The position numbers and the translations under genes were made by a program. From a virus (Duplodnaviria > Caudoviricetes): a stretch of DNA of 64,000 nt. How positions within the stretch are numbered: position 1 is the stretch's first letter; each line of letters begins with the position of its first letter. Shown here piece after piece: positions 19,168-40,515 of the stretch. The DNA is taken from IMG/VR virus record IMGVR_UViG_3300028833_000098, positions 1 to 64,000 of that record; one strand, written 5' to 3'. Below the pieces are notes generated by a model. The model did no database searches, was not told the origin of the DNA, and saw only the letters and a list, made by a program, of their open reading frames with translations.

Positions 19168-20199
19168 TTAATTCCCATCTTTTATCTTGATAAAGCCGAA
19201 TTGTTTTCCAAGAGCAACCATATGATTATGGTTAGCTCCTTCATCAACCGAAAAGTCAGATGATATATTATGATCTTTTTCTATTGAATCGACCATTCTA
19301 TTGGTATCCTCAGTATTTTTCGTACTTTTTATGAGATGTAATGCAAATTCATGATAAGACATTTTTCTGTTTTCTTTTTTATCAGTATAGCATGTATCTT
19401 CAATGAGATGTTTGTTAGCTTCGGAATCTGTTGTATTCATTCCATATGGAGCCTTTGCTCGAATATCACGAATTTCTTCAGCTAAAGATAAAAATTTTTC
19501 GGATCTTGTACCTTCAGCAGCTTTCACAGCGTTCTGTTCCTTTTGTTTATTTTTTATTTTACTGAGGTATTCACATTTTTCAAAATCTATCTTTGATAAT
19601 GGTCTAACAGGTAGAACAAATTTAAGCTTTACAGAAGTATCTTTTCCTGTGATTTCACCCTGTCTATTTTGTGTACCATTGAAAGGTGAGATTTTGTCAA
19701 CTTGTACAAATGATACTCCTCGGGTGTCTCGTTTTAATAAATTGATCAATTTATACACTGCCTCTATTTTGCCATTATACAATGCACTAATTAATCTATT
19801 CATAAGAGGAGTTCTCTTGATTAGTAGATCTCCTAAAGGATTATTTGGTTCATTGTTTTGTTTCTTTGCTTGTTGAGATGCCTCGAATGCGGAGATTATA
19901 TATTCCGCTAATATATAATTAGATTTTGCTATACTGGGGTTATGTGTTTTGAAATCACATTTGTATGTAAAAAATTTAGAAGGTGTTGATACAGTTTTAC
20001 CTGTATCAACACTAGCTTCCATCACAACTTTATCTGATATCATGTCATTTAATTTATTATATAAAGATTCGGGTATTGTAACATTGTTATTTATGTCACG
20101 TATCAGATTCATCTTGTTTGCATAATTCATATGTGCTTCGAAAACATTGATAGCTGATTCAAGAACAATTGCATCAATATCAATAAAATCAAATTCCAT
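19168..20199 (-). CDS. putative internal head protein (propeptide family, divergent)
   Basis: N-terminus IDIDAIVLESAINVFEAHMNYANK..VVMEA. Confidence 0.55.
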   Translation of the reverse strand: MEFDFIDIDAIVLESAINVFEAHMNYANKMNLIRDINNNVTIPESLYNKLNDMISDKVVMEASVDTGKTVSTPSKFFTYKCDFKTHNPSIAKSNYILAEYIISAFEASQQAKKQNNEPNNPLGDLLIKRTPLMNRLISALYNGKIEAVYKLINLLKRDTRGVSFVQVDKISPFNGTQNRQGEITGKDTSVKLKFVLPVRPLSKIDFEKCEYLSKIKNKQKEQNAVKAAEGTRSEKFLSLAEEIRDIRAKAPYGMNTTDSEANKHLIEDTCYTDKKENRKMSYHEFALHLIKSTKNTEDTNRMVDSIEKDHNISSDFSVDEGANHNHMVALGKQFGFIKIKDGN

Positions 20200-20204
20200 T
20201 TATA

Positions 20205-21356
20205 TCACACCTTTTGAAGATTATTCTTGTTGATAGCAGTTGTAACGTTCTTACCATCGGAAGAAATAACAATTCTGTCACCATTTACTTCAAGAACAGT
20301 GTATACCGAAACAAACATAGTGAACTTCTTATTTGTTCCATACACATAGTTTTGTCCCGATTTGATCTTAACCTTATCACCTTTCTTGAGTGTAATACTA
20401 CCCTTTACGACAACCCAACCTCTACCGGATTTGAGTTTTCCAAATGTAGCACTACCGGAGACCTTCTCATCGATGATAGTGTATACGCCAGTAGCTCCCA
20501 TTGTACCAACCATTCTGCCACCTGCAGATCCATATATGGGTTCACTGGCCTTGAATGATTTGGTGTATTCCTGGAATGTTGATACTGCCTTTACAAGTGT
20601 GATATCATTTGTCTTGATAGGAGATTGAATATTTCTATTCTTAGCTTCATTGAGACCAAGAACGGCTCTATCTCCAGAAATAGATGAGATGTACCATTTC
20701 TCATTTACAACCCACTGAGGAATACCACCACCATTATAGTATCTAGCACCGTCATTTATCTTTACAAGATCGCCGACCTTGAAAGATGTTTTGGATGTAG
20801 ATGATGTTGGATGTGCGGGTGCGGGAGTCGGATTGGTTGTAGCAGCATTCAGCTGAGCATTTACCTTATTACATATTTCTTGTGCTCTTGCTTTGATCCA
20901 AGGACCAGGGCATGCTGTTGCAGCAAACATATAGTGGAATGTGAGTGAACCATTCTTATTACCAGTGAATTCAAGCTTCTTTATACCATTTCTCTTACAG
21001 ATATCAACACAGAGTTTGATAAGAGAATTGTATGCAGCTGTCGATATAGGCCAATTAGGAGCACCATCTGAGTTAGATACCTCAATGGTGATAGCCTGAT
21101 GGTCATTTTCTGGTGAAGATGAACACCATGATCTGTCACTTTCAGGGCATGTTAAAACGATTCTACCATCATTACCGATACCATAGTTGGATGACATCTG
21201 TCTTGATGGTGCAGCAACTATATTGGCAAATGTTTCGATACTATTTACACCAGCCATGTGGTGAATAGTAATCTTTGTAATCGGTTTGTTTCTCGGCGAA
21301 TTTCTGTTTGGAGAAATTCTGGTTAAACTAACCAATGAACTGTTTGTGAATGCCAT
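20205..21356 (-). CDS. N-acetylmuramoyl-L-alanine amidase endolysin (Amidase_2) with C-terminal SH3-like binding modules
   Basis: ITIHHMAG, SSNYGIG, AITIEVSN, TFHYMFAATACPG; FKVGDLVKI and LKKGDKVKI modules; GKLKSGRGWV. Confidence 0.9.
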   Translation of the reverse strand: MAFTNSSLVSLTRISPNRNSPRNKPITKITIHHMAGVNSIETFANIVAAPSRQMSSNYGIGNDGRIVLTCPESDRSWCSSSPENDHQAITIEVSNSDGAPNWPISTAAYNSLIKLCVDICKRNGIKKLEFTGNKNGSLTFHYMFAATACPGPWIKARAQEICNKVNAQLNAATTNPTPAPAHPTSSTSKTSFKVGDLVKINDGARYYNGGGIPQWVVNEKWYISSISGDRAVLGLNEAKNRNIQSPIKTNDITLVKAVSTFQEYTKSFKASEPIYGSAGGRMVGTMGATGVYTIIDEKVSGSATFGKLKSGRGWVVVKGSITLKKGDKVKIKSGQNYVYGTNKKFTMFVSVYTVLEVNGDRIVISSDGKNVTTAINKNNLQKV

Positions 21357-21373
21357 AAATAATTCCTCCTTTA

Positions 21374-21658
21374 TTAATAATAATGGTTAAGATCCCTCTT
21401 TTTGATAATTTTATGTTTGAGCAGATAATCTATGACATCAGTACTATGTAATATGAATTGTTTGCTTGATGTACCTGCTACTGCACGTTTTTTCAAAGCT
21501 TCAAAGTATTCTTTATCCCAAGGCTTTTCTTTCTTTTTTATGTCATAATCAACAAAGAAATTGGGATTCTGTTTTTCATAGTATGATATAATATCATGAA
21601 CTTCTTCACGAGTGTGTCTGCCTTTAAATATGTCAATTATCAAAGAAGCGATTTTCAA
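21374..21658 (-). CDS. hypothetical protein
   Basis: TTG start with AAGGA RBS; KEKPWDKEYF motif. Confidence 0.55.
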   Translation of the reverse strand: MKIASLIIDIFKGRHTREEVHDIISYYEKQNPNFFVDYDIKKKEKPWDKEYFEALKKRAVAGTSSKQFILHSTDVIDYLLKHKIIKKRDLNHYY

Positions 21659-21708
21659 ATTATCATCCTTTTTATCAGGATAAGGATCTTCAGTTATTTT
21701 ATCTTTAA

Positions 21709-23031
21709 CTACACATCCTCCGAAGAATCATCCGACGACGCCTTAGGAGTTTTCTTTCCTTTTATCTTTTTAATAGCTTTATCAAGCTTGGTCGGATTCT
21801 CTTCATGGAGTTTCTTCTTCTCGTCATAATACTTTTGTACAGCAGCCTCATAAGTCTTCATGTCTGCTCCTTTAACAGCATCTTCCGTATTTTTGAAGAT
21901 ATCATTCAAAGCCTTATCGGTTGCTTCGGTGATTTCATCCGCTGTTGCGTCTGCTGGAAGCTTCTTCTTTGTGATAGCTTCATAGTAAGTCTGAACGATC
22001 CTGATCTTATATTTATCATCACTCTCATCATCATTCTGCGGATATTTATCCAGAATTTTGGGATTTGTTTTGGTGACCTTACTGTATATTTTATCAACAA
22101 CTCTGCCCTTAAATTTGTCATCTTCCTCATTCAACTTTATTGGAATATTGATATATCCAACAACCTTCTTTGCAACACTGAGTATTTTTGTACCAGCAAA
22201 TACAGCAGCATTGATTATAGTGAGTTTGTTTGATAATTCCTTGATTGAAACAAGAACATCATGATCTTCTTCATTACCACCATTGATTTTTATTTCCTTA
22301 AGCTTTTTGTCAACAAGTGTTGATGCAGCAACACCTGCTGATGTTAAACCGCCGGCAATACCAGATATATGACCTATGAGGTCTCCCAATGCTCCAAGAC
22401 CCATATCAATGACTTCTGATAATGAATGCTCTTTCTTTTTATGAATAATCTTATCACATTCATCTACGAAAGTTCTTATTTTACTAGGATTAGTAACATC
22501 AAACTCCGCCTTGATCTTTGTAAATAAGTTGAATATAAGATCACCGGTTCCAGCCAACCATGCGATTGCACCAAACGCATCTTTCCAGGTCTTTTTGAAT
22601 TTTATCTTACCAGACTTTTCGTCAAAGTAGACAACGTCTTTGCCTTCTTTTTCGTTGATCTCATTAACCTTTGCTTTCTTTTCTTCGGCATTGGCATATT
22701 TTTCAAACTTATTAGAAGCTTCTTTGAGTTTCTTTCCTAAGGAAGAGTCACTAAAGGCTTTGCTAATAGCTTTACACATTTCCTTTATGAGTCTTGGTAT
22801 AAACATCAGGAAAGTCACGAGCTTATTGGAATCCTTCTTACCAGCCTTCTTAACATTGTCAAGTACGGTTCCCTCCATGATATATTCATCTTTGAGTTCA
22901 TTAGAACAGAAATCCATGAAATCTATCTGTTTACTATATAGAGAAACCATTGATTCCAATACACAGAATGAAGAATTTTCCACCTCTGTATTTACGGCAT
23001 CAATAGCTGTAAGTATTTCGTTACTTATCAT
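21709..23031 (-). CDS. putative internal head/ejection protein (propeptide family)
   Basis: NEILTAID..VLESMVSLYSK..YIMEG, then FLMFIPRLIKEM. Confidence 0.65.
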   Translation of the reverse strand: MISNEILTAIDAVNTEVENSSFCVLESMVSLYSKQIDFMDFCSNELKDEYIMEGTVLDNVKKAGKKDSNKLVTFLMFIPRLIKEMCKAISKAFSDSSLGKKLKEASNKFEKYANAEEKKAKVNEINEKEGKDVVYFDEKSGKIKFKKTWKDAFGAIAWLAGTGDLIFNLFTKIKAEFDVTNPSKIRTFVDECDKIIHKKKEHSLSEVIDMGLGALGDLIGHISGIAGGLTSAGVAASTLVDKKLKEIKINGGNEEDHDVLVSIKELSNKLTIINAAVFAGTKILSVAKKVVGYINIPIKLNEEDDKFKGRVVDKIYSKVTKTNPKILDKYPQNDDESDDKYKIRIVQTYYEAITKKKLPADATADEITEATDKALNDIFKNTEDAVKGADMKTYEAAVQKYYDEKKKLHEENPTKLDKAIKKIKGKKTPKASSDDSSEDV

Positions 23032-23061
23032 TATTTAATCACCTCTGCAATTATAAAAATA

Positions 23062-23088
23062 TCATAGCCGGGAAATCCCCGGCTATGA
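23062..23088 (-). terminator. hairpin/terminator
   Basis: TCATAGCCGGG-AAATC-CCCGGCTATGA. Confidence 0.65.
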
Positions 23089-23104
23089 CATGTCGGGTTA
23101 CATA

Positions 23105-23200
23105 TTACTCTTCTTCACCTTTACCGTTGGATAGTTCTTCCTCCATTTCAGGTGTCAGTTCAACAGAGTCAGTTGTTAAGTTTTTCTCCTTATCATCCAT
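23105..23200 (-). CDS. 31-aa acidic micro-protein
   Basis: Not in the ORF track; MDDKEKNLTTDSVELTPEMEEELSNGKGEEE*; RBS GAAGGAG; overlaps the upstream stop. Confidence 0.55.
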   Translation of the reverse strand: MDDKEKNLTTDSVELTPEMEEELSNGKGEEE

Positions 23201-24683
23201 CGATCTCAGCTCCTTCTTTTGAATAGTCAGGTTTAGTCAGTAAGGAATAATCATCATCCTGATTGTGTTTCTTCCAATACTCTATAGCTCTCTTGTCACC
23301 GATTGGTCTACAGAGAATTGATCCATGAAACTTTTTATCCAAGTCATCACCAAATTTGGTACTAGGACCACCTCTCAATGAACCAAGATATGTCTTCGAA
23401 TATTCCTTTCCATCAATGACTTCAGTACCACCATCATCACCAGTAACTATTGCATGAAACTCATCACGAAGACCCTCATCAACAATATCGGATGTATCAG
23501 GAACTTCAACTTCGGCAGATTCTTTACCCCAGAATTCATCCTTCTGATCCTGCTTTTCTTCACGTGCAAGATTCCTTTCAAGACGTGCTGTTGAAAGTTC
23601 ATCCTGTCTTTCTTCATTACGTTCTTTGAGTTTGGTGAGTTTCTTCTGCTTCTTTGCGATACGCTTCTTGTCCTGTTCGAGACGTTTTGTTTCCTGCTTA
23701 GAACCCTTGATCTTTGATTTGAGTTCTTTTTCTTTGCGCTTCTCTTCAGCAAGTGCCTTATCTTCTTCCGGATCATGGCTGAAGTTAGCTCTTGCTGTAC
23801 CGAGGATTTTTCTTACGAAGAATGGTCCACCGTTAGCCATGTACTTGGCAATCTTACCGCCGATAGCACCGAATGTTGTAACAGTACTACATATCTCGGC
23901 ATATTTGGATATCTCATCCAACATATCCTTGATAGCAGCCTGTTCAGAAGCATCTTTACCTGTCTCAACAGCCTTCTGGAGCTGTTTCTCAAGTTTGAAT
24001 CTGACTTCATCGACGATACCACTAACGGCACGTGAAACACGTGATGAGTCTTTTACCATTTCAAACATTACATCAGCTGTGAGAACTCGTGCTTCATCAA
24101 GAGATGTTTTGCCAGAAAGTATTGATCTGAATTCCTTTACAAGAGTAGAATAACTGGAACCACCATCCCTAAGTTTCTTGAAGATGGGACCAACACCAGA
24201 AACTATCTTGATATAGTTTTTGATGTGCCAAAACTTTTTACCCAGAATGAAGTGTTTCTTAGTAGGTTCAAATGATATATTCTCATTTGACACTGCTTGA
24301 GTATTGGCCTGTGCAGTATTAAGCTTCTGGGGATCATTCTCGTTGTTGAGGTTGTTGATTGCTTCCGGAGCATTCTTATCAAGGTCGTCATCAAACTTGT
24401 CGGTGAATACCGATGCAATAGCTTTGACAATACCTGCCAGAAGACGGGGTATGAAAAGAATTATCTTTTTGAAAGCACTATCGAAAGTATTCTTTCCAGT
24501 AGCTTCATCCATGATTTTTCCTTCCATTACTACAGCTTCCTGGAATATGGAGAATTCAAAGAAATCTGACATTTTGTCATATTCTTTTATCATTGCATCA
24601 AGTACATTGATAGTTGATTCCTGAACGGAATAACCTATATCATCAATCGATGAGAGGATTTCGTTTTCAACATAAACACTCAT
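23193..24683 (-). CDS. putative internal head/ejection protein (propeptide family)
   Basis: NEILSSID..VQES..YDK..FSIFQEAVVMEG, then ILFIPRLL. Confidence 0.65.
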   Translation of the reverse strand: MSVYVENEILSSIDDIGYSVQESTINVLDAMIKEYDKMSDFFEFSIFQEAVVMEGKIMDEATGKNTFDSAFKKIILFIPRLLAGIVKAIASVFTDKFDDDLDKNAPEAINNLNNENDPQKLNTAQANTQAVSNENISFEPTKKHFILGKKFWHIKNYIKIVSGVGPIFKKLRDGGSSYSTLVKEFRSILSGKTSLDEARVLTADVMFEMVKDSSRVSRAVSGIVDEVRFKLEKQLQKAVETGKDASEQAAIKDMLDEISKYAEICSTVTTFGAIGGKIAKYMANGGPFFVRKILGTARANFSHDPEEDKALAEEKRKEKELKSKIKGSKQETKRLEQDKKRIAKKQKKLTKLKERNEERQDELSTARLERNLAREEKQDQKDEFWGKESAEVEVPDTSDIVDEGLRDEFHAIVTGDDGGTEVIDGKEYSKTYLGSLRGGPSTKFGDDLDKKFHGSILCRPIGDKRAIEYWKKHNQDDDYSLLTKPDYSKEGAEIDG

Positions 24684-24703
24684 TGATTATTATCCTCCTT
24701 TCA

Positions 24704-26953
24704 TCAAAATACTTTGTCGTCATTAAACCATTCTATGAATGATTCAGTCAGTACGATATTGTGTTTTGATATAAGATTATTGAGATGCTTATCGAGATCT
24801 TCTGCTTCTTCAGGAGAGAATGTTGTTGAGTTGTATATAGTACTGATATTTGTCTTATGAATATCTGAGAAGTTATCAACGATCCATTTGCAATACTTCT
24901 TTATTTCCGGATCAAGATCCTTCTGTGCAAGAAGAGTCTTCGCTGCACGTACAGAAGCATGACATCTTTCGAGTGGTGTTGGATAAGATGAAAATACATT
25001 CTTATGGAGTTCCATTTCAAGTTTAGCAAGCTCATTAAGCTTCTCTGTTTTGAACTCATTTGGAGTGTACTTTTCCTTACTGCTACCAACGAAGAATGTT
25101 ATAGGAAGCTGATACATTGAAGCAAAGAGATCACAGTAATATTCTTCATAGAGTTTTGCAGAAGAATAGGTTGATATTGCATCAATGTATGCGAGAGATA
25201 ATGTCATTGTTCCCAATAATCCAGCAATACCAGCACCGCCTACTATTACAGGCAGTGCAGCACCTTCTGTCATAATCGTACCAACGATACCAGCAGCTGC
25301 AATAAGTGACCAGGTGATATACCGTGCAGGACCCGGCTTTGAAGTGTTCTTTACAGACTTCTTATATCTCTTTATAAGAGAATCTATATATGCATCAGCA
25401 TTCTCAGTTCTCTTTGCATTAGCAGCAAGTTTCTTTGCTGCACTTTCCTTTTCTTCAACCATCGACAATGCAACGAGCTGCTTAACCATCTTCTTCTTTG
25501 CAATCTTATCTATAAGCTTGCTATTTGAAACAGCATCAATTGAATCAACATAATTCTGCATGATGATTCTCTTTTTCTTAACATCGTCTGTTGAACCAGC
25601 CGCATTAAGTGCTGTTACGAGAGACATAGCCATCTTTGCACTTTCCTCACGTAATACAAGAGAAATGTTATGGAATATCTCATGAAGGAATATCGATACC
25701 ATTGTCTGTCCGAACAGCTTCGAATTAGAGTTATTAGACTCGAAGAATCTGTTGAATACATATATCGATATTGGCTGACCATTAAGCTGGAAACCTTTTG
25801 ATTTTGATATAGTGAGATTTCTCTTTATATCACGATGGAGACGTGTTGCAACGTTCTCGTATCCAGACTTATCTGCAAAGAAACGAATGTTGATATTACA
25901 GTCGAACTGTTTATTCAAACACTCAACACCCTTCTTGAATGATGGGTTATTCAAGAATTTCTTTGTGTCAAGTTTTTCTGCGTCAGCATCCTGTTCAGAA
26001 CGAGCGTCATTGAAGAACTTGATTGCTTTAACAATATTTGAATTATCAAACCTCATGTATTTGATGTCTTCTTTTGTTATAACCTTCTTTTTCTTGGGGT
26101 TTTTCTTTGTGTCAGTTGCAGATTCAACATATACTGAATCAATGGGCTTAACAAAGTCAAAACCATGTTTCTGAAGAAGATCATAACCGAGATGTGTTGT
26201 ATCACCCATCTTAGCTATCATATTTACATGATATGCAGATTCCTGTATTTCATCAGGAATACTTGTTGCCTGAACATTAACTTGATCAGCAGCTTCATCG
26301 GCAGATGCATTCATATCAACATTTGCAGATATGTCTGAATCTTCATCATTGAAATAATCATCGCCAGGTCTTTTTGCACTTGCTGAAGGATCAAATGTTG
26401 GTATTGTGTTGGATGCTCTCAGTTCAGCAACCTTTGCTACGGCAGCGGGTGTATTGGGCATATCAACTGCACCTGAATCATATGCATGAATTTCTCCACC
26501 CTCATCATCATTATAAATACCAATGCATTTACCCTTTGGGCCATTTGATAACATTGATATCTTATCGGCCATCTGACCATTCGCAATGTTTCTTGCCTGA
26601 TAGTCATTGATCTTATCATCTATTCTCTGAGAGATATAATCAAGAACACTTCCTATCGCCTGCATGATAACCTTTGTCTGGCCAGCAGGATTAGCAACAG
26701 GAGGAGCTATGATGGTGTCGTCTTCAACTCTAACCGATGTTGCAGCATCATCAGAAATGATATTCGTTGCAGGTATACCATACATTGCTCCAACTGCTTC
26801 AAGTGCAGCTACAAGATCGGGAGCTTCGGAAACAAGCTTATTGACTTTTTCCTGTACAGAATTTACTACCTGTTTACTTTCAGCCAATGTACTGCTCGTA
26901 TTTGTATTGATATTACTCATTGGAGTAATTGTTTCCTGAATAGGTTTAAGCAT
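24704..26953 (-). CDS. virion-associated M48/HtpX-like membrane zinc metalloprotease, paralog 1
   Basis: FLHEIFHN, TM hairpin, EEYYCDLFA, YPTPLER; RBS GGGAGG before the ATG at 26953. Confidence 0.65.
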   Translation of the reverse strand: MLKPIQETITPMSNINTNTSSTLAESKQVVNSVQEKVNKLVSEAPDLVAALEAVGAMYGIPATNIISDDAATSVRVEDDTIIAPPVANPAGQTKVIMQAIGSVLDYISQRIDDKINDYQARNIANGQMADKISMLSNGPKGKCIGIYNDDEGGEIHAYDSGAVDMPNTPAAVAKVAELRASNTIPTFDPSASAKRPGDDYFNDEDSDISANVDMNASADEAADQVNVQATSIPDEIQESAYHVNMIAKMGDTTHLGYDLLQKHGFDFVKPIDSVYVESATDTKKNPKKKKVITKEDIKYMRFDNSNIVKAIKFFNDARSEQDADAEKLDTKKFLNNPSFKKGVECLNKQFDCNINIRFFADKSGYENVATRLHRDIKRNLTISKSKGFQLNGQPISIYVFNRFFESNNSNSKLFGQTMVSIFLHEIFHNISLVLREESAKMAMSLVTALNAAGSTDDVKKKRIIMQNYVDSIDAVSNSKLIDKIAKKKMVKQLVALSMVEEKESAAKKLAANAKRTENADAYIDSLIKRYKKSVKNTSKPGPARYITWSLIAAAGIVGTIMTEGAALPVIVGGAGIAGLLGTMTLSLAYIDAISTYSSAKLYEEYYCDLFASMYQLPITFFVGSSKEKYTPNEFKTEKLNELAKLEMELHKNVFSSYPTPLERCHASVRAAKTLLAQKDLDPEIKKYCKWIVDNFSDIHKTNISTIYNSTTFSPEEAEDLDKHLNNLISKHNIVLTESFIEWFNDDKVF

Positions 26954-29495: not shown

Positions 29496-29538
29496 GGAAT
29501 GCCAGGATGAAAACTCTAAATCCAGAAAGGATGATAAA

Positions 29539-30326: not shown

Positions 30327-30361
30327 CACCATCATCTTATGATGGAGAAAAGGAGAAAATT

Positions 30362-30832: not shown

Positions 30833-30833
30833 G

Positions 30834-30867
30834 AAAATAACCCGCCTTGCGCGGGTTATTTTTTTTT
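30834..30867 (+). terminator. intrinsic terminator
   Basis: AAAATAACCCGC-CTTGC-GCGGGTTATTTTTTTT. Confidence 0.85.
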
Positions 30868-30937
30868 CATTTTTTATAGGATCCGGAACCGCATGCTAAT
30901 ATATACTATTTAAAATGTATAGAAAGGACTGATAAGT

Positions 30938-31684
30938 TTGCGTAATACAAGATGTCCGTTTTGTCCAAAAATATTTAATGACAAACATAGGTTCTGTAGA
31001 CACATTGCATACAAACACAATGACCAAGTACCCGAAGATTGTGATGATGCTTTAGAATGGGCTTATTCATTATTGGTGGGAAAACCAACAGGTCGTTTAT
31101 GTGTTCAATGTAAAAAGAACCCTGTTCATTTTAACAGAGAGACTCTCAAATACGAGAGATACTGTTCTGATGCATGTAAGGCTGCGTATGCGGATAACTT
31201 TCATAACAAACGAATGGTTGATAAATACGGTAAGCCGCATTTATTGAATGATGCGGATATGCAACGCAAGATGATTTTTAATCATGCACAAGCCAGGGAT
31301 TATTTATGGGATGACCAACACAAATTCAGAATCATCGGATCATATGAAGAAGATTTTCTGAAGCACCTAAAAGATCTTGATTGGTCTCCTAATGATGTCA
31401 TCTGTCCATCACCTCATAATTACTATTACAAATGGGCTGATGGGACAACACATCTCTACATCCCAGATTTCTACATACCATCTTTATCATTGGAAGTAGA
31501 AATCAAAGAGAGTGATAACACACATCCTCGAATGGAACACTCGAGAGAGATTGAACATTTAAAAGATAATCGTCTTGCATATGAGACCAAGAAGACCGGT
31601 ATTCATTACATAAAAATCGTTGATAAAAACTATACTGACTTTGATCAAATATATGTCAAGTCGGATACAAATAAACCTGAATAA
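30938..31684 (+). CDS. zinc-finger + PD-(D/E)xK (TnsA/gp4-like) endonuclease
   Basis: CPFC..HIAYKH; CVQC..YCSDAC; GSYEEDF..YIPDFYIP..EVEIKE. Confidence 0.7.
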   Translation: MRNTRCPFCPKIFNDKHRFCRHIAYKHNDQVPEDCDDALEWAYSLLVGKPTGRLCVQCKKNPVHFNRETLKYERYCSDACKAAYADNFHNKRMVDKYGKPHLLNDADMQRKMIFNHAQARDYLWDDQHKFRIIGSYEEDFLKHLKDLDWSPNDVICPSPHNYYYKWADGTTHLYIPDFYIPSLSLEVEIKESDNTHPRMEHSREIEHLKDNRLAYETKKTGIHYIKIVDKNYTDFDQIYVKSDTNKPE

Positions 31685-31701
31685 GAAAGGTGGTGTAGTG
31701 T

Positions 31702-33351
31702 ATGTTGGATCTCACAATAGTACAGGACTCTGTATATGAAGCAGATGATAACGTTAGAGAATCTATTGACATGATGTATGTCAAACATAAAATGATTCAA
31801 GAGTTTGCCATGAATTCTAATGATGAATCATTGGAATATTATGTAGAATCATCTAACATTCCCGTTGGATCATCTAAAACATTCGATCTTTTTTCTTTTA
31901 ATAATGATCACATTATTCGTGCTATTCGTCATTTCAATAAAGCATATGCTGAATTGGAATTCAGTAGTAAGAAATCAGAATATAATAAATTGAAGAAAGA
32001 TTTTGAAGAAGGTAACAGACCTCTCAATGCAAAGTCCATTAGACCAACCGGTGAGCTTGTCAAAGAAATGAGAGATAAGTTTATAAAACAAGGTGGTCAT
32101 TTTGAGAAGGGATTCAAAGAATTGGAAAAACAATTTGATTGTAATTTCCAAATCTACCTATCACATGCATCTGGCACAGGCACTGCTTTAACAAAGTTCC
32201 CTAAAGATGCTCCTGTTAGTAAGATAACCATATCAAAGAAAAAGGGTTTTCAATTGGGTGGATTAAATATAATCATCAATGTTAACCCAACACAAATCCT
32301 TCAGATCGTTCCTTCTAACAGAAAACTGTTTGGTCAAACATTAACCGCAATTCTCTTGCATGAGATATATCATAACATCGTACACAGTGTTGATATAAGA
32401 AACAGGAATCTTCATAATGATATCAAACGAACATTTTCAGGTGTTGGTAGTAATGAGAATAAGGCTTCAATTGATTCAAAGGTCAATGGATTAATATCCA
32501 GATTTAAATCAGCATTCTCCATAAAAGATATGGAGTTTAATGAAGATAGATCAAAGAATCGATTTTATGTTTTATCCAAAATAAAAGATAACCCAAATGC
32601 ATTGAAAAAGTTTGAAAATGATATCAAGGAGAATGTTGATAAAACCAACTCTGAAAAAGAGCTTGATGATTATATCAAAACTTTGAGCATGATAAAAACA
32701 GTTACGGGTTTGCGTAAAGGCGTTAGAATGGTTGCTACTGCATGTGCCATCTTGCTTGCAGGTTTAGGTTTTGTATTCGGTTCATCATTAATGGCTGCAT
32801 CTGGAATAATCTATTTGGCAATAGTAGCTTTATCAATGTTGATCAAAAAGGTTCTTTCTTTGTTCTCTGTTTCTGTTGGTGTACAGGAAGAATACTTCTG
32901 TGATTTGTTCGCAGCAATGTATAATCTCCCAATACACATAACATCATTCAAGAGACAGATTCAATTGAACAAGGTTAACAAAGAAAAAGTGTCCAAAGCC
33001 AATAAGTTAAATTCTAAAATATATGACAATGTAAAAGATGTTCATCCATTGACATATGATCGTGAACTTGTTTCATATCAAATGGCCAAACAGATACTGG
33101 ATTCTGGTAAACATCTAAAACCGGAAATCAAACGATATCTGAAATATATCGTAAGTCAAAATGAAGGTATTGATGATATGGATGTTTCGCATACAAAACG
33201 TCAAGAGAAACAACTTGATCCTGAAGCAGCAAAAGATCTTCAGAAAACCATTGATGATTTTGTTCGTAAAACAGGCGTTACTGTAACAGAATCATTCATT
33301 GATGATGTTGAAGATTGCATTCTTGATTATTATCTTGAAGAAGGTGAATAA
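31702..33351 (+). CDS. virion-associated M48/HtpX-like membrane zinc metalloprotease, paralog 2 (propeptide family)
   Basis: Propeptide ..VRES..YVK..YYVES; LLHEIYHN; TM hairpin; EEYFCDLFA; HPLTYDR. Confidence 0.65.
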   Translation: MLDLTIVQDSVYEADDNVRESIDMMYVKHKMIQEFAMNSNDESLEYYVESSNIPVGSSKTFDLFSFNNDHIIRAIRHFNKAYAELEFSSKKSEYNKLKKDFEEGNRPLNAKSIRPTGELVKEMRDKFIKQGGHFEKGFKELEKQFDCNFQIYLSHASGTGTALTKFPKDAPVSKITISKKKGFQLGGLNIIINVNPTQILQIVPSNRKLFGQTLTAILLHEIYHNIVHSVDIRNRNLHNDIKRTFSGVGSNENKASIDSKVNGLISRFKSAFSIKDMEFNEDRSKNRFYVLSKIKDNPNALKKFENDIKENVDKTNSEKELDDYIKTLSMIKTVTGLRKGVRMVATACAILLAGLGFVFGSSLMAASGIIYLAIVALSMLIKKVLSLFSVSVGVQEEYFCDLFAAMYNLPIHITSFKRQIQLNKVNKEKVSKANKLNSKIYDNVKDVHPLTYDRELVSYQMAKQILDSGKHLKPEIKRYLKYIVSQNEGIDDMDVSHTKRQEKQLDPEAAKDLQKTIDDFVRKTGVTVTESFIDDVEDCILDYYLEEGE

Positions 33352-33352
33352 T

Positions 33353-33832
33353 ATGGCTTTGGATGAAGTAGGAATTACATTATCGGAAGTAACGAAAAAG
33401 TTCCCAAGGAGATTTCAAACTCTCGGTTATGATGTTGCTTTTGATACAGACTCGATGAACAAACCAAAAATATTATCGTCTTTTGAACTGGGTGTGAATG
33501 TTATACTCACTCTCTTATTCATGAAGCCGGGACAGTTTCCATCAATACCTACATTGGGTATTGATATTGAATCCTATCTTCATGAATATTCTGATGATAA
33601 AAAGATCCCTGCTGAAATCAAAAACAAGTTGTCAGATCAATGTAATCAACTTGATATATCAGGATTAACAATTGATGTATTTTTTGATAAAACCGAAGAA
33701 GGTATTGATGCATTGGTGATTTCAATATCTGGTACAGAGACTGTCAGTTATGGTAATGAAACAGACCATGTCATCATAGGCATTTCTTATGACAAACTAA
33801 ATCGTTTGTACGTAAGAAAAATAAATATGTGA
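33353..33832 (+). CDS. baseplate wedge / sheath initiator (T4 gp25/GPW-like)
   Basis: LLFMKPGQFPSIPTLGIDIESYL resembles the gp25 motif; size fits. Confidence 0.6.
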   Translation: MALDEVGITLSEVTKKFPRRFQTLGYDVAFDTDSMNKPKILSSFELGVNVILTLLFMKPGQFPSIPTLGIDIESYLHEYSDDKKIPAEIKNKLSDQCNQLDISGLTIDVFFDKTEEGIDALVISISGTETVSYGNETDHVIIGISYDKLNRLYVRKINM

Positions 33833-33846
33833 GGTAGGTGATATAA

Positions 33847-34593
33847 ATGGATGCATCGGTAAAAAGAAAAAAGATTGAGGATATCGTTACACAAACATTG
33901 AAACTCATGGATCCAACGGGTATCAATGCAAAGAAGTATGAATCATTTTTCAAATCAATGAATGATGCTCAATTTGCAAAATGGATCAAAGAATTCCTTG
34001 CTGATGAGAAGAGCAACATACGTCTCGATATTGAAGAATTTGGTGATGGTTCAAGAACACTGAAATTCGAGAATATCGAAAAAGCTGCTGATAACCTCGG
34101 TATCAAATTATTCGAATATGTATATATTCCACATGTATCATCTAATCCGAACCGACCCATAAGGACCAAACAGCCAGTATTGGTTGGATACCTTAACGTC
34201 AAAAGAACTCAGCAGCTTGTTACCAAGAAAACTGGTTTGGCATTGAATGACGATGATCGTGATGATATGACAGGTGCAGTTAAAGGTGATGCTAAGGGAG
34301 GAACTACTACTGGTATTGAGAATGAACTTCTCGCCGGTGTTGGTGCCACGGACATCTTATCCGAGATAACAGGTGCTCGTGCTGATAACGTTGCCGAATA
34401 TGACAACATGCTCAGATCAATTGCAGAGACAGGCTCTGTTAGGTTAGCCGATATAAAGACTAATGCATATGATAAACCCACACTTCTTGCGGCGGATTTA
34501 TATTTTGCTGCAATGGGATTAAAAACAGACCTCATATCAGAATCTTATTATTCTGCTGAGAAGATAAAATCTGCATTTGAAGGTGAAACATAA
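33847..34593 (+). CDS. phage RNA polymerase beta-like C-terminal subunit (phiKZ gp149-type)
   Basis: PVLVGYLNVKRTQQ..RDDMTGAVKGDAKGG..IENELLAGVGA..LSEITGARADN aligns by eye with the RpoB C-terminal region. Confidence 0.78.
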   Translation: MDASVKRKKIEDIVTQTLKLMDPTGINAKKYESFFKSMNDAQFAKWIKEFLADEKSNIRLDIEEFGDGSRTLKFENIEKAADNLGIKLFEYVYIPHVSSNPNRPIRTKQPVLVGYLNVKRTQQLVTKKTGLALNDDDRDDMTGAVKGDAKGGTTTGIENELLAGVGATDILSEITGARADNVAEYDNMLRSIAETGSVRLADIKTNAYDKPTLLAADLYFAAMGLKTDLISESYYSAEKIKSAFEGET

Positions 34594-34616
34594 TAAAATG
34601 AAAAGGAGAAGATTTT

Positions 34617-35144
34617 ATGAAGGTAAATATCGTTGGTAAGGGCGTAATCCCTTACATAAACAAGGTTGCACCTGCAATGAATATTGAGGTGAGTGAACCA
34701 ATACTCAAGAAACTGGTTAAGGATCGCCGGTTCAGAATCTTTGATTCAAAAGGTTCAGGTCCTGTAACAGCTGCTACATTTGAAGCTCCTGTCGTAACAG
34801 AGCCTGTTGTTGAGGAGAAGCCCGTTGAGGCACCTAAGCCGAAGAAGAATAAGGCTAAAAAGGAAGAGTATCATCCCGATGTAACTGTAACAGAAGTGCC
34901 TGATGAAATCGGCATTGATCTTGCTCAGACTCTTGATAGTGTTATCGAGACTGCTGTTGAGGTTCCTGCAGAAGAGGAATCTTCAGTTGTTGAAGAGAAG
35001 GTTGAAGAGCCTGTTGCTGAAAAAGAAGAGCTCGAGATTCCTGTAGAGGATGTTGATCTCGATGAGTTCCCTGCTGAAGAGGCTACTAAAGAAGAAGCTC
35101 CTAAGCAGCCTTCCAAGAAGAACAAGAAGAAGAATCGCAAGTAA
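34617..35144 (+). CDS. hypothetical protein, small N-domain + E/P/V-rich tail
   Basis: RBS AAGGAG; low-complexity acidic region, basic C-terminus. Confidence 0.7.
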   Translation: MKVNIVGKGVIPYINKVAPAMNIEVSEPILKKLVKDRRFRIFDSKGSGPVTAATFEAPVVTEPVVEEKPVEAPKPKKNKAKKEEYHPDVTVTEVPDEIGIDLAQTLDSVIETAVEVPAEEESSVVEEKVEEPVAEKEELEIPVEDVDLDEFPAEEATKEEAPKQPSKKNKKKNRK

Positions 35145-35165
35145 TACATAAAGGAGGAATATATA

Positions 35166-36365
35166 ATGATCTTCCTTGAACAGGATGATTTCACTGAGGA
35201 GGAAGCCAGAGTCTTCGTTGAAGCTTATGGTACAAAAGATATTCCTCTAAATGAAACGATCGTAAAACCGATCATGCGTATAATTGCTACACCTAAGAAG
35301 CAGAGGGAATATATTGCTTATGGTGAAGAATTCTTACAGGCTAATTCCGAGATGTTGTCTAAAGAGTTTCCAACCAAAGCAGTATCATTTCCTCGTTCTT
35401 ATGTAGATAATATTTTTGCAATGTTTGGTTTCCAAAAGAACTCATTTAAAGAAAATCTCAAAGAAATTCTCAAAGGTGTTTCTGATAAAACTTCTTTCCA
35501 AACCATTATTGCAAATCCAACGAATGTTATACATTCGATAGTACTCATATATTCTGACCATGTAGGCAATCGTAAATTACGTGATTCTGCACGTCAGCAG
35601 ATGGGTCTTTCGATTTATAATAATACATTCAATCATTTTTTCCATCCGCCTCATCCTATCGAATCGACAATGGCTTATACATACATGAATCTTGATAATT
35701 CATGGAATCTTGTTAAATGCGAGAATGTTATAAACTGGATCGATTTGACAATTGAGACGGCGTATCAATTCTGGCGTACCAGACTTGATCTTGATTTGGA
35801 CACGTCGGTGATGGTTCAATTTCTCAATCGTGTCAGAACATCCTTCCAACAGAACCTACGCTTGCTGGCGAATCAGTATTTTGACACTGTCAATGAAAAT
35901 AAGGGTAACTTGGTTGGTAGTGATGTATCTTCTGATGATATGTACTTTGAAACCAATAACACCGTTAAACTACGAGAAGGTCTCATTCGTCGTATAAACG
36001 GAAAAGACCAACTCTATTGTTCTAAGGGAGATTTGTACAGTGGTATTGCAAAACTCAAGAATGTTAAAGTTGATACTTTATATGAGTTTGCTCAGGAGAT
36101 AAAAACTGAGGATATCGGTCTTATTATCGATACGATATTTTATGTATTTATATCCAAAGAGGGTAATTCGATTGATGATATAAATTCTGTAAAATATATA
36201 TCACGTATAACAAATCTTCCTACAGCAATAGATAGGGCTATTGCTGGTAAACCAATCATATTAACGCTGTCAAAGAAATATAAAATAGATGAATCAATCA
36301 TTCGAGCTTATATTTGTTTGATAGCAACATACATAATGTATCGCATTAACGATGTAAAGGTATAA
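35166..36365 (+). CDS. conserved-looking hypothetical protein (possibly virion)
   Basis: RBS AAGGAGG; acidic N-terminus ending FVEA. Confidence 0.6.
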   Translation: MIFLEQDDFTEEEARVFVEAYGTKDIPLNETIVKPIMRIIATPKKQREYIAYGEEFLQANSEMLSKEFPTKAVSFPRSYVDNIFAMFGFQKNSFKENLKEILKGVSDKTSFQTIIANPTNVIHSIVLIYSDHVGNRKLRDSARQQMGLSIYNNTFNHFFHPPHPIESTMAYTYMNLDNSWNLVKCENVINWIDLTIETAYQFWRTRLDLDLDTSVMVQFLNRVRTSFQQNLRLLANQYFDTVNENKGNLVGSDVSSDDMYFETNNTVKLREGLIRRINGKDQLYCSKGDLYSGIAKLKNVKVDTLYEFAQEIKTEDIGLIIDTIFYVFISKEGNSIDDINSVKYISRITNLPTAIDRAIAGKPIILTLSKKYKIDESIIRAYICLIATYIMYRINDVKV

Positions 36366-36380
36366 CAGGAGGTGATATTA

Positions 36381-37757
36381 GTGTTTGACATACTTACAGC
36401 CATTGATGCATCCCAGGATGAATCACAGGAAGCTGTTATGGAATCTCTTTTTACTACATACGACAAAGCATTGATGATTCTGGAATATCTTGATTCTGAT
36501 GACATAAGTTGTTTTTCAATATTTCAGGAAGCCGCAACGGATAATGACAAAGAGGTTTCTGGAAAAGATAAAGCAAAACAGGGTATTCTTAAAAGTATTT
36601 TTGGTATAATACCAAAACTCATTCAGCGTCTCAAAGATCTTTCGGCGAAAAAATTCGAAGCAAAGAAAATGAAAATGCTCGAAAAGAAAGCCAAGAAGTT
36701 GGGTGTTGATCTTAGCAAGTTATCAGAATCTGAAAAAGAAATGTTATATGCATCCCTCAATAGCCAATTGACGGAGTCTGACATAAATAAGATAATAACA
36801 AAACGTAAACTCATGAGTTTCGGTCTGAAAGCTGGGCTTGGTGCAATTGTTATTGGTGGATCAGCATATTACCTCAATAACAAAAAAGAGCTGGTCGTTG
36901 AGAAGGTTAATGACTTTAAAGGAAAGATCTATAAGAAACTTGATGAAGATGTTCTCAAGGGTGTTCGTGAAGCAACCGATGCTGCGGTTGAAAAAATATC
37001 GAACGTAGCTGATGCAGCAGCAGAAAAAATTAAATCTGCGGCAGATGCTTGTAAGAAAGCTGTTGAAACAGTTATCAATTTCTTAAAGAAACTATTTGAT
37101 GCATTTAAGAAATTTTTCAACATACATCTACTCAATTATGACAAAACAGAGGTTGAAAAAATTCTTTGTAAAATAGATCCAAACACAGGAACCCTTCATG
37201 TCACATTTGATACTGACACCATCAATGAATGGATCAAAGAAACAAAGACCTTTATATCAAACGCATCACAATTCATTGGACGTAAAGTCGTAAACGGCGA
37301 ACTTGAAAAGAACGTCAATGATGAGGGTAAGATGACACGTGGTGGTGCAATTGCCGCAGTTCAGAAAGAACATGATAGTGCTACTATCATGAAGGGCAAG
37401 AATGGAGCAACACTCGTATCGGATTATCGTAATCATCTTGAGAAAATTGCTTCCAAATTTAATGCAAAGGCCGAATATCATCCGATTGACGGCTTCATTA
37501 GCTATTCGTCAGAAATAATCGATGATCTAAATAAGGTATGTGATCTGGCGAAGAAACTAAGTGAAAAATATACCTCTATGGTAGATAATCCAAATAGAAA
37601 ACAGACGGATTACCTTGAAGCTGAGAAAGAGGTTGCAATGACTCTTCGTGGTATTCTCGATACCCAGATCCTTATAACAGAATCGGTTGATGCAATCAAT
37701 AATTACATCAACACTGTTTCTGAAATGACATCTGCTCTTGAAATCGGTTCTGAATGA
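36381..37757 (+). CDS. putative internal head/ejection protein (propeptide family)
   Basis: GTG start; DILTAID..VMES..YDK..FSIFQEA; one hydrophobic segment. Confidence 0.65.
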   Translation: MFDILTAIDASQDESQEAVMESLFTTYDKALMILEYLDSDDISCFSIFQEAATDNDKEVSGKDKAKQGILKSIFGIIPKLIQRLKDLSAKKFEAKKMKMLEKKAKKLGVDLSKLSESEKEMLYASLNSQLTESDINKIITKRKLMSFGLKAGLGAIVIGGSAYYLNNKKELVVEKVNDFKGKIYKKLDEDVLKGVREATDAAVEKISNVADAAAEKIKSAADACKKAVETVINFLKKLFDAFKKFFNIHLLNYDKTEVEKILCKIDPNTGTLHVTFDTDTINEWIKETKTFISNASQFIGRKVVNGELEKNVNDEGKMTRGGAIAAVQKEHDSATIMKGKNGATLVSDYRNHLEKIASKFNAKAEYHPIDGFISYSSEIIDDLNKVCDLAKKLSEKYTSMVDNPNRKQTDYLEAEKEVAMTLRGILDTQILITESVDAINNYINTVSEMTSALEIGSE

Positions 37758-37830
37758 TTTTACGATACGAAAAGTTAAAGCTTCAAATTAGAAGTTTATT
37801 AAAAAATTATACGAAAGGAATGAAATATTT

Positions 37831-39234
37831 ATGAACGAAATCAATGTTCGTAATGAAATTCTTGGTTCTATCGATAATGTCAACGATGTTACTATGGAAT
37901 CGACACTTGATGTAATGGGTTCATTGGCTCTTGCTTATGATAAAGCGGCTATGATAACCGAGTATTCAAATACTGAAGATCTTTCGATGTTCTCTATATT
38001 CCAGGAAGCTGAGGTAGCTGAGGCTAAGAAGGAACCTGGTCTGGGAATGAAGATACTGATGTTTATTCCTAATATCCTCAAGAAGATATGGGAATTCCTC
38101 AAGCAGGCATGGAACGGTGAAATTGTTCCTACTGCAAAGAAGGCTGCAAAGGAAGCAGAGAGTCTTTCTGATAAATTCAAAGGTCTTTTCAATAAGATCA
38201 TCGGTAAGGATGAGAGTTGGATAAGAGAGCATGCGAAAGAACTCGGTATAAGTGGTGCTATGCTTGCACTTGTTCTCGGCGTTGCTACATGGTTCAACAA
38301 GGATAACTTGAAGAAGCTCTTCACAGAATTTATTCAGGGTATCAGTGGTTTCTTCAAGAAAACGTCTGATAACTTCAAGCAGTATGGCGTAATATTCGAG
38401 ATGGTCGTATGGAATAAGTTTAAGACAAACATATCTTTCAAGGGCCTGAAGGATGCTATTACATCACTTCCTAAGTTCTTCAAGGATTGTGCAGCGTATC
38501 ATGAAAGATATATAAAGGGTGGTCTTCCTGGTTCAACCAACGGTGAGATTAAACAGATCGACTATAACAGAACTGATATCAGTGCTATGGAAACAGAACT
38601 CAATGCTCTGAATACAACATTCGACCAGATGACGAATGCTGATATCGTAGTCGCTGATACAGTTGAATACACTATTCCACAGGTAATCGACGGCATTACT
38701 GCAGATCTTGATCCTGATTCAGAAGAAGGTAAAGAGCTTATCGCTACAATGGAGAAGACAGCCAATGTAATGAAGCTCACTGATGAACAGATCAATGCTT
38801 TCTCACAGAATTTCCCTGCAAAGAGTAATATACAGAAGATTCTGTCCAAATTTGCTGGTTGGTTCCAGAAGGTTGGTGGCATGATCGCTGGTTGGTTCAG
38901 GTCTCTGAAGAAGATTTGTACCGACTTCGTCCAGAAGATCAAGGATGCTAGAGATATCGACAAGTCTCTCGATTACGGCAAATCTGACAGTGAGGAGCCT
39001 GCTACAAAGGATTCAAATCCTGGTAATGATAAAGCAGCTACTGATGACCTTACTTCGAATCTCGAAGAGGATAGTACTGCAACATACCCTGCCCAGGCTG
39101 ATGGTGCGGAGACACCTGAGGAAACGGGTCTTGAATCCACACAGGAAGAAATTCCTGAGGGTGAAGAAGCTGTTCAGGAGTCTGCAACAGAGGATGAAGC
39201 CGAAGCAGCTATCAATAATCACTGGTATAGATAA
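37831..39234 (+). CDS. putative internal head/ejection protein (propeptide family)
   Basis: NEILGSID..TMES..YDK..FSIFQEA; ILMFIPNILKKIWEFL; C-terminal VQESA. Confidence 0.68.
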   Translation: MNEINVRNEILGSIDNVNDVTMESTLDVMGSLALAYDKAAMITEYSNTEDLSMFSIFQEAEVAEAKKEPGLGMKILMFIPNILKKIWEFLKQAWNGEIVPTAKKAAKEAESLSDKFKGLFNKIIGKDESWIREHAKELGISGAMLALVLGVATWFNKDNLKKLFTEFIQGISGFFKKTSDNFKQYGVIFEMVVWNKFKTNISFKGLKDAITSLPKFFKDCAAYHERYIKGGLPGSTNGEIKQIDYNRTDISAMETELNALNTTFDQMTNADIVVADTVEYTIPQVIDGITADLDPDSEEGKELIATMEKTANVMKLTDEQINAFSQNFPAKSNIQKILSKFAGWFQKVGGMIAGWFRSLKKICTDFVQKIKDARDIDKSLDYGKSDSEEPATKDSNPGNDKAATDDLTSNLEEDSTATYPAQADGAETPEETGLESTQEEIPEGEEAVQESATEDEAEAAINNHWYR

Positions 39235-39247
39235 TATATCTAATGAG

Positions 39248-39274
39248 GAGATATCCCCATTTCGGGGATATCTC
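39248..39274 (+). terminator. hairpin/terminator
   Basis: GAGATATCCCC-ATTTC-GGGGATATCTC. Confidence 0.65.
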
Positions 39275-39306
39275 TTTCTATTATACAAACAAAGGAGGTA
39301 TGATTG

Positions 39307-40515
39307 ATGATTTCAAAAGAAATTATTGATTCAATCGATGAAGTTGTCATCGAATCAAATATCGATGTATTTGAATCATTATGTGCATCATATGACAAAG
39401 CATATGATATTCTTGAATACTGTTCTGATGACGATGTTGATTTCGGCATGTTTTCTATCATTCAGGAGTCAACCATTGAAAAGGGTGATACTGAATCAAA
39501 TGCAGACATTAAGAAGAAAGATAAAAAGCAAGGCAATATTCTTTCCAAGATGCTTGACGCTATTATCAGTTTCTTCAAAATGATCGGTTCAGCAATTGCC
39601 TCTTTCTTCAGGAAAGCAAAGGAAGGCATTTCTGATAAACTCAGAAAACTTTCTAAGAAATCTGATAAAGAATGCAGCGATGTTCAGGATAAGATCGATA
39701 ATGGTCCTGCTGGGGACAAGCTCGACAAGGCAGCTTCTTCTTTTGAAGAAAAAGCTGAAACAAAAGAAGCGCTTACTGATAACAGTGACGAAGAAAAGTC
39801 TGATGATGGTGAAAAGAAGCCTGATAACAAGACAAAGATACTTGTAAAGGAAAAGAAGATCAAAACACATATCAAGTTTGATGCTTGGATAAAATTCCTT
39901 GAATATAGTTATGCATATACAGAGCGTGTCGTTAACAAAGCAACAGTTCTGACAAAGAGTGATGTCAGGTCTGCAATTGTCAATAGACCAACTCGAGCAA
40001 TTCAGAAGAATAATAAGCCTCTCAAAGACGAAATCGAAAAAGTCCAAGGTGGAGTTGCTGATCTGGTAGGTGACATCAAAGGTGGTTCGGATGTTCGCAA
40101 GGCCCGTCTAAAGAAGCAAACACTTTTCTCAAAGTATTGTAAGAAATATCCCGTATCTGAAGTGGCAGATAGCATAGATAAGATAGATGATCTTCTCAAC
40201 AAGAATATCGAATCATCCAAGAATGCTTTGGAGAAATTCAAAAAGGTTAAGGTTGTTCTCGATAAGGGAAATAATAATTCCACATTCAATAAGCTCGTGA
40301 AGGATATTACCAAGATCCATACAGAGCTTGCCAATATCGGTTCAGTAACTCTGGCTCTCACGAAGTATATTGGTCTCGAGCTCGGTCTTTATGATTCTAT
40401 GCTTGCAATCATCATTCCTATGTTCGATAAGGAAATGGCTGATAAGAAGAAAGCCGAAGAGGAAGCAAATCCAACATTAAATGTCAATGTGAGAACCAAA
40501 AACAATGAGGAATAA
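39307..40515 (+). CDS. putative internal head/ejection protein (propeptide family)
   Basis: KEIIDSID..IES..VFES..YDK..FSIIQES. Confidence 0.65.
   Translation: MISKEIIDSIDEVVIESNIDVFESLCASYDKAYDILEYCSDDDVDFGMFSIIQESTIEKGDTESNADIKKKDKKQGNILSKMLDAIISFFKMIGSAIASFFRKAKEGISDKLRKLSKKSDKECSDVQDKIDNGPAGDKLDKAASSFEEKAETKEALTDNSDEEKSDDGEKKPDNKTKILVKEKKIKTHIKFDAWIKFLEYSYAYTERVVNKATVLTKSDVRSAIVNRPTRAIQKNNKPLKDEIEKVQGGVADLVGDIKGGSDVRKARLKKQTLFSKYCKKYPVSEVADSIDKIDDLLNKNIESSKNALEKFKKVKVVLDKGNNNSTFNKLVKDITKIHTELANIGSVTLALTKYIGLELGLYDSMLAIIIPMFDKEMADKKKAEEEANPTLNVNVRTKNNEE

Follow-up and report, generated by a model that had tools for sequence, protein, structure and literature searches.

The internal proteins of phage T4 carry a cleaved N-terminal capsid-targeting sequence (CTS) (PMC5694885, PMC10052503), whose sufficiency for packaging was shown by Mullaney and Black according to the account given in PMC5694885. 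Head proteins of the giant phages SPN3US and phiKZ lose N-terminal propeptides of 20-254 amino acids (aa), which are presumed, though not shown, to target their carriers likewise (PMC5694885, PMC10052503). The conserved N-termini of two SPN3US proteins, gp53 and gp54, have 15 residues in common, which have been called "reminiscent of the T4 CTS" (PMC5694885). Here we analyze a 64-kb stretch of viral DNA (the window), positions 1 to 64,000 of IMG/VR record IMGVR_UViG_3300028833_000098, in which a set of genes opens with a common N-terminal leader. Judged by its sequence, this leader is a discrete and widespread module that has not been described as a family. We read it, with a probability of roughly 0.6, as a prohead-targeting or assembly propeptide of head-interior proteins that would be removed by an S80 protease. 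On the best-supported comparison, it would be a new and unusually well-defined form of the kind of device represented by the T4 CTS and by the long propeptides that phiKZ-like phages use.

An earlier, sequence-only reading of the window proposed that seven open reading frames (ORFs) share such a segment, and all seven exist at the starts it gave. They are listed here with leader spans in residues and nucleotides (nt), where ↓ marks the putative cut:

19168..20199, minus strand: protein A, 343 aa; leader aa 1-61 (nt 20017-20199), ending VVME↓A; body family unassigned
21709..23031, minus strand: protein B, 440 aa; leader aa 1-53 (nt 22873-23031), ending YIME↓G; FIPRL helix; helical body, paralogue of C
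23193..24683, minus strand: protein C, 496 aa; leader aa 1-49 (nt 24537-24683), ending SIFQE↓A; FIPRL helix; helical K/E-rich body
31702..33351, plus strand: protein D, 549 aa; divergent leader aa 1-49 (nt 31702-31848), ending YYVE↓S; disordered linker 49-65; conserved body 66-507
36372..37757, plus strand: protein E, 461 aa from GTG 36372; leader to aa 53 (nt 36372-36530), ending SIFQE↓A; IIPKL helix; helical body
37831..39234, plus strand: protein F, 467 aa; leader aa 1-59 (nt 37831-38007), ending SIFQE↓A; folded body 69-388; acidic disordered tail 385-467
39304..40515, plus strand: protein G, 403 aa from TTG 39304; leader to aa 55 (nt 39304-39468), ending SIIQE↓S; helix without Ile-Pro; helical body

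Protein E probably starts at 36381, because ESM Atlas holds it from residue 4, and G has alternative starts at TTG 39304 and ATG 39307. Protein C has a second site, VVME↓G, five residues after SIFQE↓A.

Relatedness of the N-termini is plainest for B, C, E, F and G, which have their first 80-125 aa in common and nothing else (BLASTP all against all, E 1e-13 to 4e-3). A hidden Markov model (HMM) built from these five sequences recovers its members at 1e-21 to 1e-31 among the 430 ORFs of the 110-kb contig to which the window belongs. Protein A is the top non-member in that scan (E 0.012) and D is not significant (E 0.56), in agreement with the earlier remark that the copies starting at 20199 and 31702 are the more divergent ones. 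For D, 89 homologues were gathered, and a leader of like architecture, ending CFQE↓G, opens most of its orthologues. The N-termini of 61 D orthologues align with the leader family at an hhalign probability of 96.3% (E 1.9e-9). Moreover, when an HMM is made from D-type leaders only, leaving out all five, it picks up the N-termini, in register, of E (9.6e-9), F (3.2e-8), B (1.9e-4) and G (9.1e-4). Therefore, D is by sequence a true but divergent member, whose copy in the window appears to have drifted to YYVE↓S. Protein A aligns with the leader family at 80% probability (hhalign, E 1.3e-5, 31 columns, in register), and its single distant orthologue, in related genome G001, has a leader ending SIFTE↓A. 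Only five homologues of A are found in all, and a related-locus search with A as query gave no relatives; its sequence makes A a probable member. The proposed sharing of the segment by seven ORFs thus stands for B, C, E, F, G and D and is probable for A. Outside the leader, Pfam finds no recognizable domain in the seven carriers, in 82 metagenomic representatives or in nine carriers from related genomes, returning coiled-coil and helical noise only, and PHROGs gave nothing useful for the carriers.

The leader extends well beyond this contig. Of 23 related IMG/VR loci that were collected, one (G004) belongs to a complete genome of 231 kb that has terminal repeats. Related genomes have 5-8 leader-bearing genes each, and orthologues of B are present in G001-G003. 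A profile search covering 1.84 billion representative proteins, clustered at 50% identity, matches 704 metagenomic clusters at E<=1e-3 and 308 at E<=1e-10. Metagenomic positions given here are taken from the best 150 of the 704. The match begins at residues 1-13 in all 150 best matches listed, as it does in all seven window copies. The family is wider than the HMM counts, because two related contigs, L018 and G005, are unmatched by the standard profile. On L018 (1198-2520, plus strand), a more distant relative, a 440-aa protein begins with a compressed leader of ~37 aa (..ILESEYNVLMALMKSYEK..FYCME↓AG).

In the metagenomic family, leader length is 42-57 aa, with a median of 55; the window copies measure 49-61 aa, and lengths of up to 61-62 aa occur when related genomes are taken together with the window. 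Their consensus end is F-x-I-F-Q-E, followed by A, G or S. In a logo drawn from 164 sequences, the site reads F at P6 (0.90), I at P4 (0.82), F at P3 (0.82), Q at P2 (0.89), E at P1 (0.93), and A, G or S at P1' (0.84). The same sequences give the leader a net charge of -9.4 +/- 1.7, versus +2.3 over the next 50 aa; the window copies range from -7 to -13. A poorly conserved linker comes next; in B, C, E, F and G it leads to an amphipathic helix with the consensus KIL.FIPRLI. The previously noted IPR/IPK/IPN motif is indeed present in four of these five helices (B, C, E and F) and missing from that of G.

According to structure prediction, the leader would form two or three helices and not pack against the remainder of the protein. 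In the AlphaFold2 (AF2) model of F, residues 1-68 are helical but detached, with a predicted local distance difference test (pLDDT) score below 50, and helix 71-95 is part of a body modelled with confidence (residues 70-385, pLDDT ~85-93), behind which come 80 C-terminal residues that are acidic and disordered. The model of D has a leader consisting of a helix pair (pLDDT ~60), a linker at 49-65 below 50, and a confident body at 66-507. The putative cut site thus adjoins a flexible linker, since leader and linker are detached and of low confidence and the bodies are confident. Gene conversion between leaders was considered as a source of their likeness and rejected, since the longest nucleotide word common to them is 16 nt and the codons for FSIFQEA differ. 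In the absence of long shared words, the resemblance appears to be kept by selection at the protein level and not by recent conversion.

As in the T4 CTS, which is found on IPI-III and Alt and is cut by protease gp21, the leader occupies the extreme N-terminus of unrelated proteins and ends in hydrophobic-X-Glu, and the prohead protease would remove it, too, once it had reached the core of the prohead; the head location of the carriers is itself deduced from gene context. The leader differs from the T4 element in length and structure, with 42-62 aa (median 55) and predicted helices here versus 10-19 aa in T4, and there is no detectable sequence relation between the two. The proteases differ in family as well, S77 in T4 and S80 (phiKZ gp175) here.

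The genes for this protease and for two further head proteins lie downstream of the carriers:

40536..41390, plus strand: prohead maturation protease, S80 (phiKZ gp175) family (PF20034, E 3.6e-6; phrog_3014, E 2.3e-12)
45137..45745, plus strand: scaffold-like protein, 202 aa; N-terminal half very acidic (charge -29), C-terminal half helical
45794..48031, plus strand: major capsid protein (phrog_20655, E 9.2e-11)

The protease gene starts 21 nt past the end of G, and its product scores 26.8 bits against a PF20034 cut-off of 23.4; its match to PF03420 is below the cut-off of that family. The name scaffold-like reflects only the composition of the 202-aa protein and the place of its gene, which lies after the protease region and before the gene for the capsid protein. 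Signals like the one that ends the leaders recur in all three proteins. The protease has F[VI]QE↓[AS] at residue 25 in 18 of 18 orthologues, the scaffold-like protein has [VI]ME↓A at residue 12 in 16 of 16, and the capsid protein has WFQE at 18 and [LV][IV]QE↓S at 125, each in 15 of 15. Hydrophobic-Q-E motifs are concentrated in the head module, and T4, phiKZ and SPN3US trim the corresponding proteins at such positions (PMC5694885, PMC10052503). Because the same signal ends the leaders beside a flexible linker and is kept in the protease, scaffold-like and capsid proteins, we infer that the leaders are substrates of the adjacent S80 protease, which would prefer a hydrophobic P3 and Gln at P2, unlike the A/S/G-X-E of its studied relatives. 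Near the C-terminus of the protease itself, VVCE↓S at 238 is present in 94% of orthologues and VFQE↓A at 259 in 11%, so that a self-cleavage site comparable to that of gp175/gp245, if there is one, is more likely to be 238 than 259.

The leader also resembles the propeptides of phiKZ, 201phi2-1 and SPN3US, which are jumbo phages with an S80 protease (gp175/gp245) and with several head proteins whose N-terminal propeptides are cut after Glu. Paralogues in phiKZ and SPN3US also share conserved N-termini. Thus, phiKZ gp93, gp94, gp95 and gp97 (phiKZ 83676-101332) have a similar short N-terminal motif, ..L(D/E)(K/S)L(S)LE.., which together with the SQE↓A-helix arrangement of gp86 described below forms a small-scale parallel to the leader-plus-helix unit. 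In contrast to those phages, one long, defined leader is found here on bodies that are not detectably related, including a non-paralogous HExxH protein, and the site is F-Q-E instead of A/S/G-X-E. With its hydrophobic P3 (F/Y/I/V-Q-E), it is nearer to the L/I-X-E of T4 than to the S/A/G-X-E of phiKZ.

A propeptide that functions in prohead assembly would work as follows. The leader would bring each carrier into the assembling prohead or hold it there, most likely through a common core or scaffold component. The S80 protease encoded immediately downstream would then cut after F-x-I-F-Q-E and before A, G or S. The acidic leader would be lost from the head either ahead of DNA packaging or in its course, leaving inside a mature protein that is neutral to basic. 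Several observations weigh against this reading. Cleavage, packaging, targeting and sufficiency of the leader are all inferred from sequence conservation. Sequence conservation in B, C, E, F and G does not stop at the putative cut site but extends into the helix corresponding to 71-95, and in the F family the helix is more conserved (0.66) than the leader (0.57; body 0.24). Because conservation runs on in this way, with the F-family helix above the leader, the functional unit may be longer than the leader. In the D family the leader (0.32) is less conserved than the body (0.49). The window copies of D and B lack the canonical FQE, with YVE and IME in its place. Finally, related contig G005 encodes a protease 68% identical to that of the window and has no leader match.

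The most serious competitor to a propeptide that can be attached to different proteins is ordinary paralogy, which we consider unlikely but well worth weighing. Under this explanation, a single helical head-protein family was duplicated in tandem, the N-terminal ~100 aa were kept for assembly, the bodies diverged, and nothing is portable. Protein D speaks against it, through a gene in the same window:

24704..26953, minus strand: 749-aa leaderless paralogue of the D body, with a different 300-aa N-terminal region that starts MLKPIQE↓T

Residues 66-538 of D are homologous to 302-745 of this protein (BLASTP E 2e-39), with LHEI[YF]HNI in both, and the homology begins at residue 66, exactly where the leader and linker of D stop. 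None of the leader HMMs matches the 749-aa protein. Since D carries the leader and its paralogue does not, the sequences indicate that the leader has moved between unrelated bodies at least once. The 749-aa protein has a conserved N-terminal block of its own (..SE(A/S)PDL(V/I)(A/T)ALEAVGAMYGIP..) that recurs in 700-830-aa relatives in other phages. Because its N-terminus starts MLKPIQE↓T, it may be processed by the same protease through this different N-terminal region.

The other carriers are less decisive. Paralogy is favored by the tandem arrays B-C and E-F-G, by the helical character of every body, none with a Pfam domain, and by the best 150 metagenomic matches, in which the conserved block spans leader and first body helix (profile positions 2-116). 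It is also favored by the bodies of B and C, which are homologous (hhalign 99.7% with shared sequences, and 88%, E 2.8e-6, after these are removed). A permissive six-round jackhmmer search further links the B/C-class and F-class bodies. This link may reflect profile drift, as pairwise phmmer finds no B-F relation and hhalign gives no support either. Strict body profiles fall below 25% hhalign probability for every pair but B-C, and a 524-aa protein of G004 matches the leader only (profile positions 2-58), both of which speak against a single duplicated family. The bodies were earlier called poorly alignable, and full-length homology among them was named as what would overturn the idea of a portable tag; such homology is found for B and C and, by hhalign, for no other pair.

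Body classes are orthologous groups kept across related genomes G000-G003. Leaders of different classes within one genome resemble one another almost as closely (0.40) as orthologous leaders between genomes do (0.45), in contrast to the post-leader helix, which behaves as ordinary orthologous sequence (0.475 vs 0.26). A genome-specific leader signature, such as would hint at coevolution with a partner, is small (identity 0.404 vs 0.370, permutation p=0.015) and is not relied on here. Duplication of a unit comprising the leader and first helix is the probable origin of B, C, E, F and G, and for these five, tandem duplication with fast divergence of the bodies accounts for the sequences as well as a portable tag does. 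The notion of a tag on varied bodies thus fares differently among the carriers. It stands for D, through the leaderless paralogue, and probably for A, and is half supported for B, C, E, F and G, in view of the helix past the cut site and the paralogy of B and C. A scan of the genome and its relatives for the tag on unrelated domains gave a similarly divided outcome, with D and the 524-aa G004 protein on one side and, on the other, the 150 best metagenomic matches, which take in the helix.

The carriers probably differ in kind, F being gp86-like, D an HExxH protein with hydrophobic segments, B and C paralogous, and E, G and A helical. The body of F (69-388) superposes on chain G of 8y6v (127-397), from a phiKZ capsid structure, with a VIA-align Z of 9.0 and a root-mean-square deviation of 5.1 Å over 232 of 297 residues; because helical folds give middling Z values by chance, a Z of 9 is suggestive and not proof. 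Chain 8y6v_G ranks first in both Foldseek-seeded and unbiased searches, in which the next rows reach 5.4 and 6.3, and is the only match with Z>=8 among 48,161 PDB representative chains. At the sequence level, a profile of 36 F relatives has no match to 8y6v_G at E<=10 (identity 9%), and Foldseek finds no match in the PDB at E<=1e-3 for D or F. Matches to F in BFVD, which include jumbo-phage virion proteins (RP12, AR9, PS119XW), are weak in E-value and are not used as evidence.

The 8y6v_G chain was identified as gp86, a minor capsid protein of phiKZ that binds vertices on the capsid's inner face and is trimmed by gp175 (PMC11297242). Just ahead of the modelled part, gp86 has the sequence ...TISQE↓A and then an amphipathic helix. 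It therefore resembles F in having an N-terminal part upstream of X-Q-E↓A, followed by an amphipathic helix, but its N-terminal part (~116-126 aa) has no resemblance to the leader. On the strength of the predicted fold, F is probably a gp86-like structural protein that lines the capsid wall instead of an injected cargo. "Cargo" is thus a misnomer for F, whose body is structurally closest to gp86, a protein anchored to the capsid wall on the inside. The proposal that the carriers form a payload injected into the host finds no support, and F contradicts it. Transmembrane segments in all bodies, as expected of ejection proteins, were likewise considered and dropped, as Kyte-Doolittle analysis supports them for D only and marginally for F, C and G.

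Across 44 homologues of D, there is no variation at H220, E221 and H224 of the HEIYH motif or at E396 and E397, and Kyte-Doolittle analysis marks two strong hydrophobic segments of D at 340-394. D has no family in Pfam or PHROG. Its similarity to M48 folds is weak (VIA-align Z of 5.6 for ZMPSTE24, 5.5 for Ste24 and 5.0 for BepA) and lies among unrelated helical proteins with Z 6-7. The assignment of one carrier as a metalloprotease thus has the conserved HExxH and EE behind it; it is plausible and not established. The bodies of E and G are nearest to phiKZ_IP clusters in ESM Atlas at 0.76-0.82, which is below the level that counts and serves as a lead toward paralogy, not as evidence. The PF12699 phiKZ_IP HMM matches none of the carriers even at E<=10, which sets them apart from the PF12699 internal head proteins, and a six-frame search of the contig gives only a sub-threshold 14.8 bits in another gene, a level that control genomes also reach.

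Two further explanations depart from removal or targeting. The leader could be a retained docking or oligomerization domain, for instance a helical hairpin that binds a capsid wall or core protein, with FQE structural and never cut. The module is helical with heptad-like conserved hydrophobic residues, and some SPN3US propeptides are incompletely removed (PMC10052503). We nonetheless regard a retained domain as quite improbable, given that a near-invariant Glu and small residue beside a disordered linker match the sites in the capsid, scaffold-like and protease proteins, that a charge of about -9 per copy would be costly in a DNA-filled head, and that AF2 leaves the module undocked on the body. 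Least probable of all is a zymogen-like inhibitory or chaperoning pro-domain that keeps membrane-active or proteolytic bodies inert inside the producer cell until cut by the prohead protease, with targeting secondary or absent; D has the zincin-type HExxH of enzymes that often have N-terminal pro-peptides, and an acidic leader could mask the basic amphipathic helix behind it, but the gp86-like F is a structural protein without sign of an activity to mask, AF2 predicts no leader-body contact, and the paralogue of D manages without the leader.

The window is the first part of a 109,744-bp IMG/VR contig with a CheckV completeness of ~41%. Megablast of 12 kb of the window against GenBank phages (50,697 records) gave no match, nor did tblastn of the protease or of the leader against GenBank phage records. 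The major capsid protein has a single match among GenBank phages, at 21% identity, in the jumbo phage Staphylococcus phage SA1. By these sequence comparisons, the lineage is without a cultured relative. DNA nearly identical to the window is present in sheep and bovine gut metagenomes from nine studies, and the source is a jumbo phage of the ruminant gut. Genes identified on the contig include those for the S80 protease and the major head protein (phrog_20655) and two more:

20205-21356, minus strand: Amidase_2+SH3 endolysin, between leader genes A and B
33847-34593, plus strand: 248-aa protein, RNA polymerase beta-subunit fragment (phrog_3233, E 7e-45)

The endolysin is itself without a leader although flanked by the leader-bearing A and B, and is the one feature that suggests a Gram-positive host. 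The polymerase fragment lies in the head-gene region between D and the E-F-G array and, by analogy with phiKZ-like phages, may be a virion-packaged polymerase subunit. RNA-library contigs from two studies span E, F, G and the protease (window 36372-41390) at an identity of at least 99%. They break near the E/F and F/G junctions, as does a DNA run. Coverage in RNA libraries does not imply transcription, because such libraries can contain DNA.

Giant-phage propeptides are long, and work on SPN3US and phiKZ assigns them a role like that of the T4 CTS by presumption only. The leader family described here offers a sharply bounded, alignable and abundant example, with hundreds of clusters and a near-invariant release site. 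The leaderless paralogue of D supplies a natural control, with which the targeting hypothesis becomes concretely testable. We further suggest, as a tentative possibility, that the 55-aa leader is a self-sufficient and transferable packaging signal, and that uncultured jumbo phages of the gut, forming a large clade, recruit new head proteins, including enzymes such as the HExxH protein, by leader shuffling. Practical value is limited in a phage without a cultured host. If the suggestion is correct, the leader fused to any protein would load it into the capsid, and jumbo phages would have their own equivalent of the T4 CTS, complete with a defined partner and a defined F-Q-E release site.

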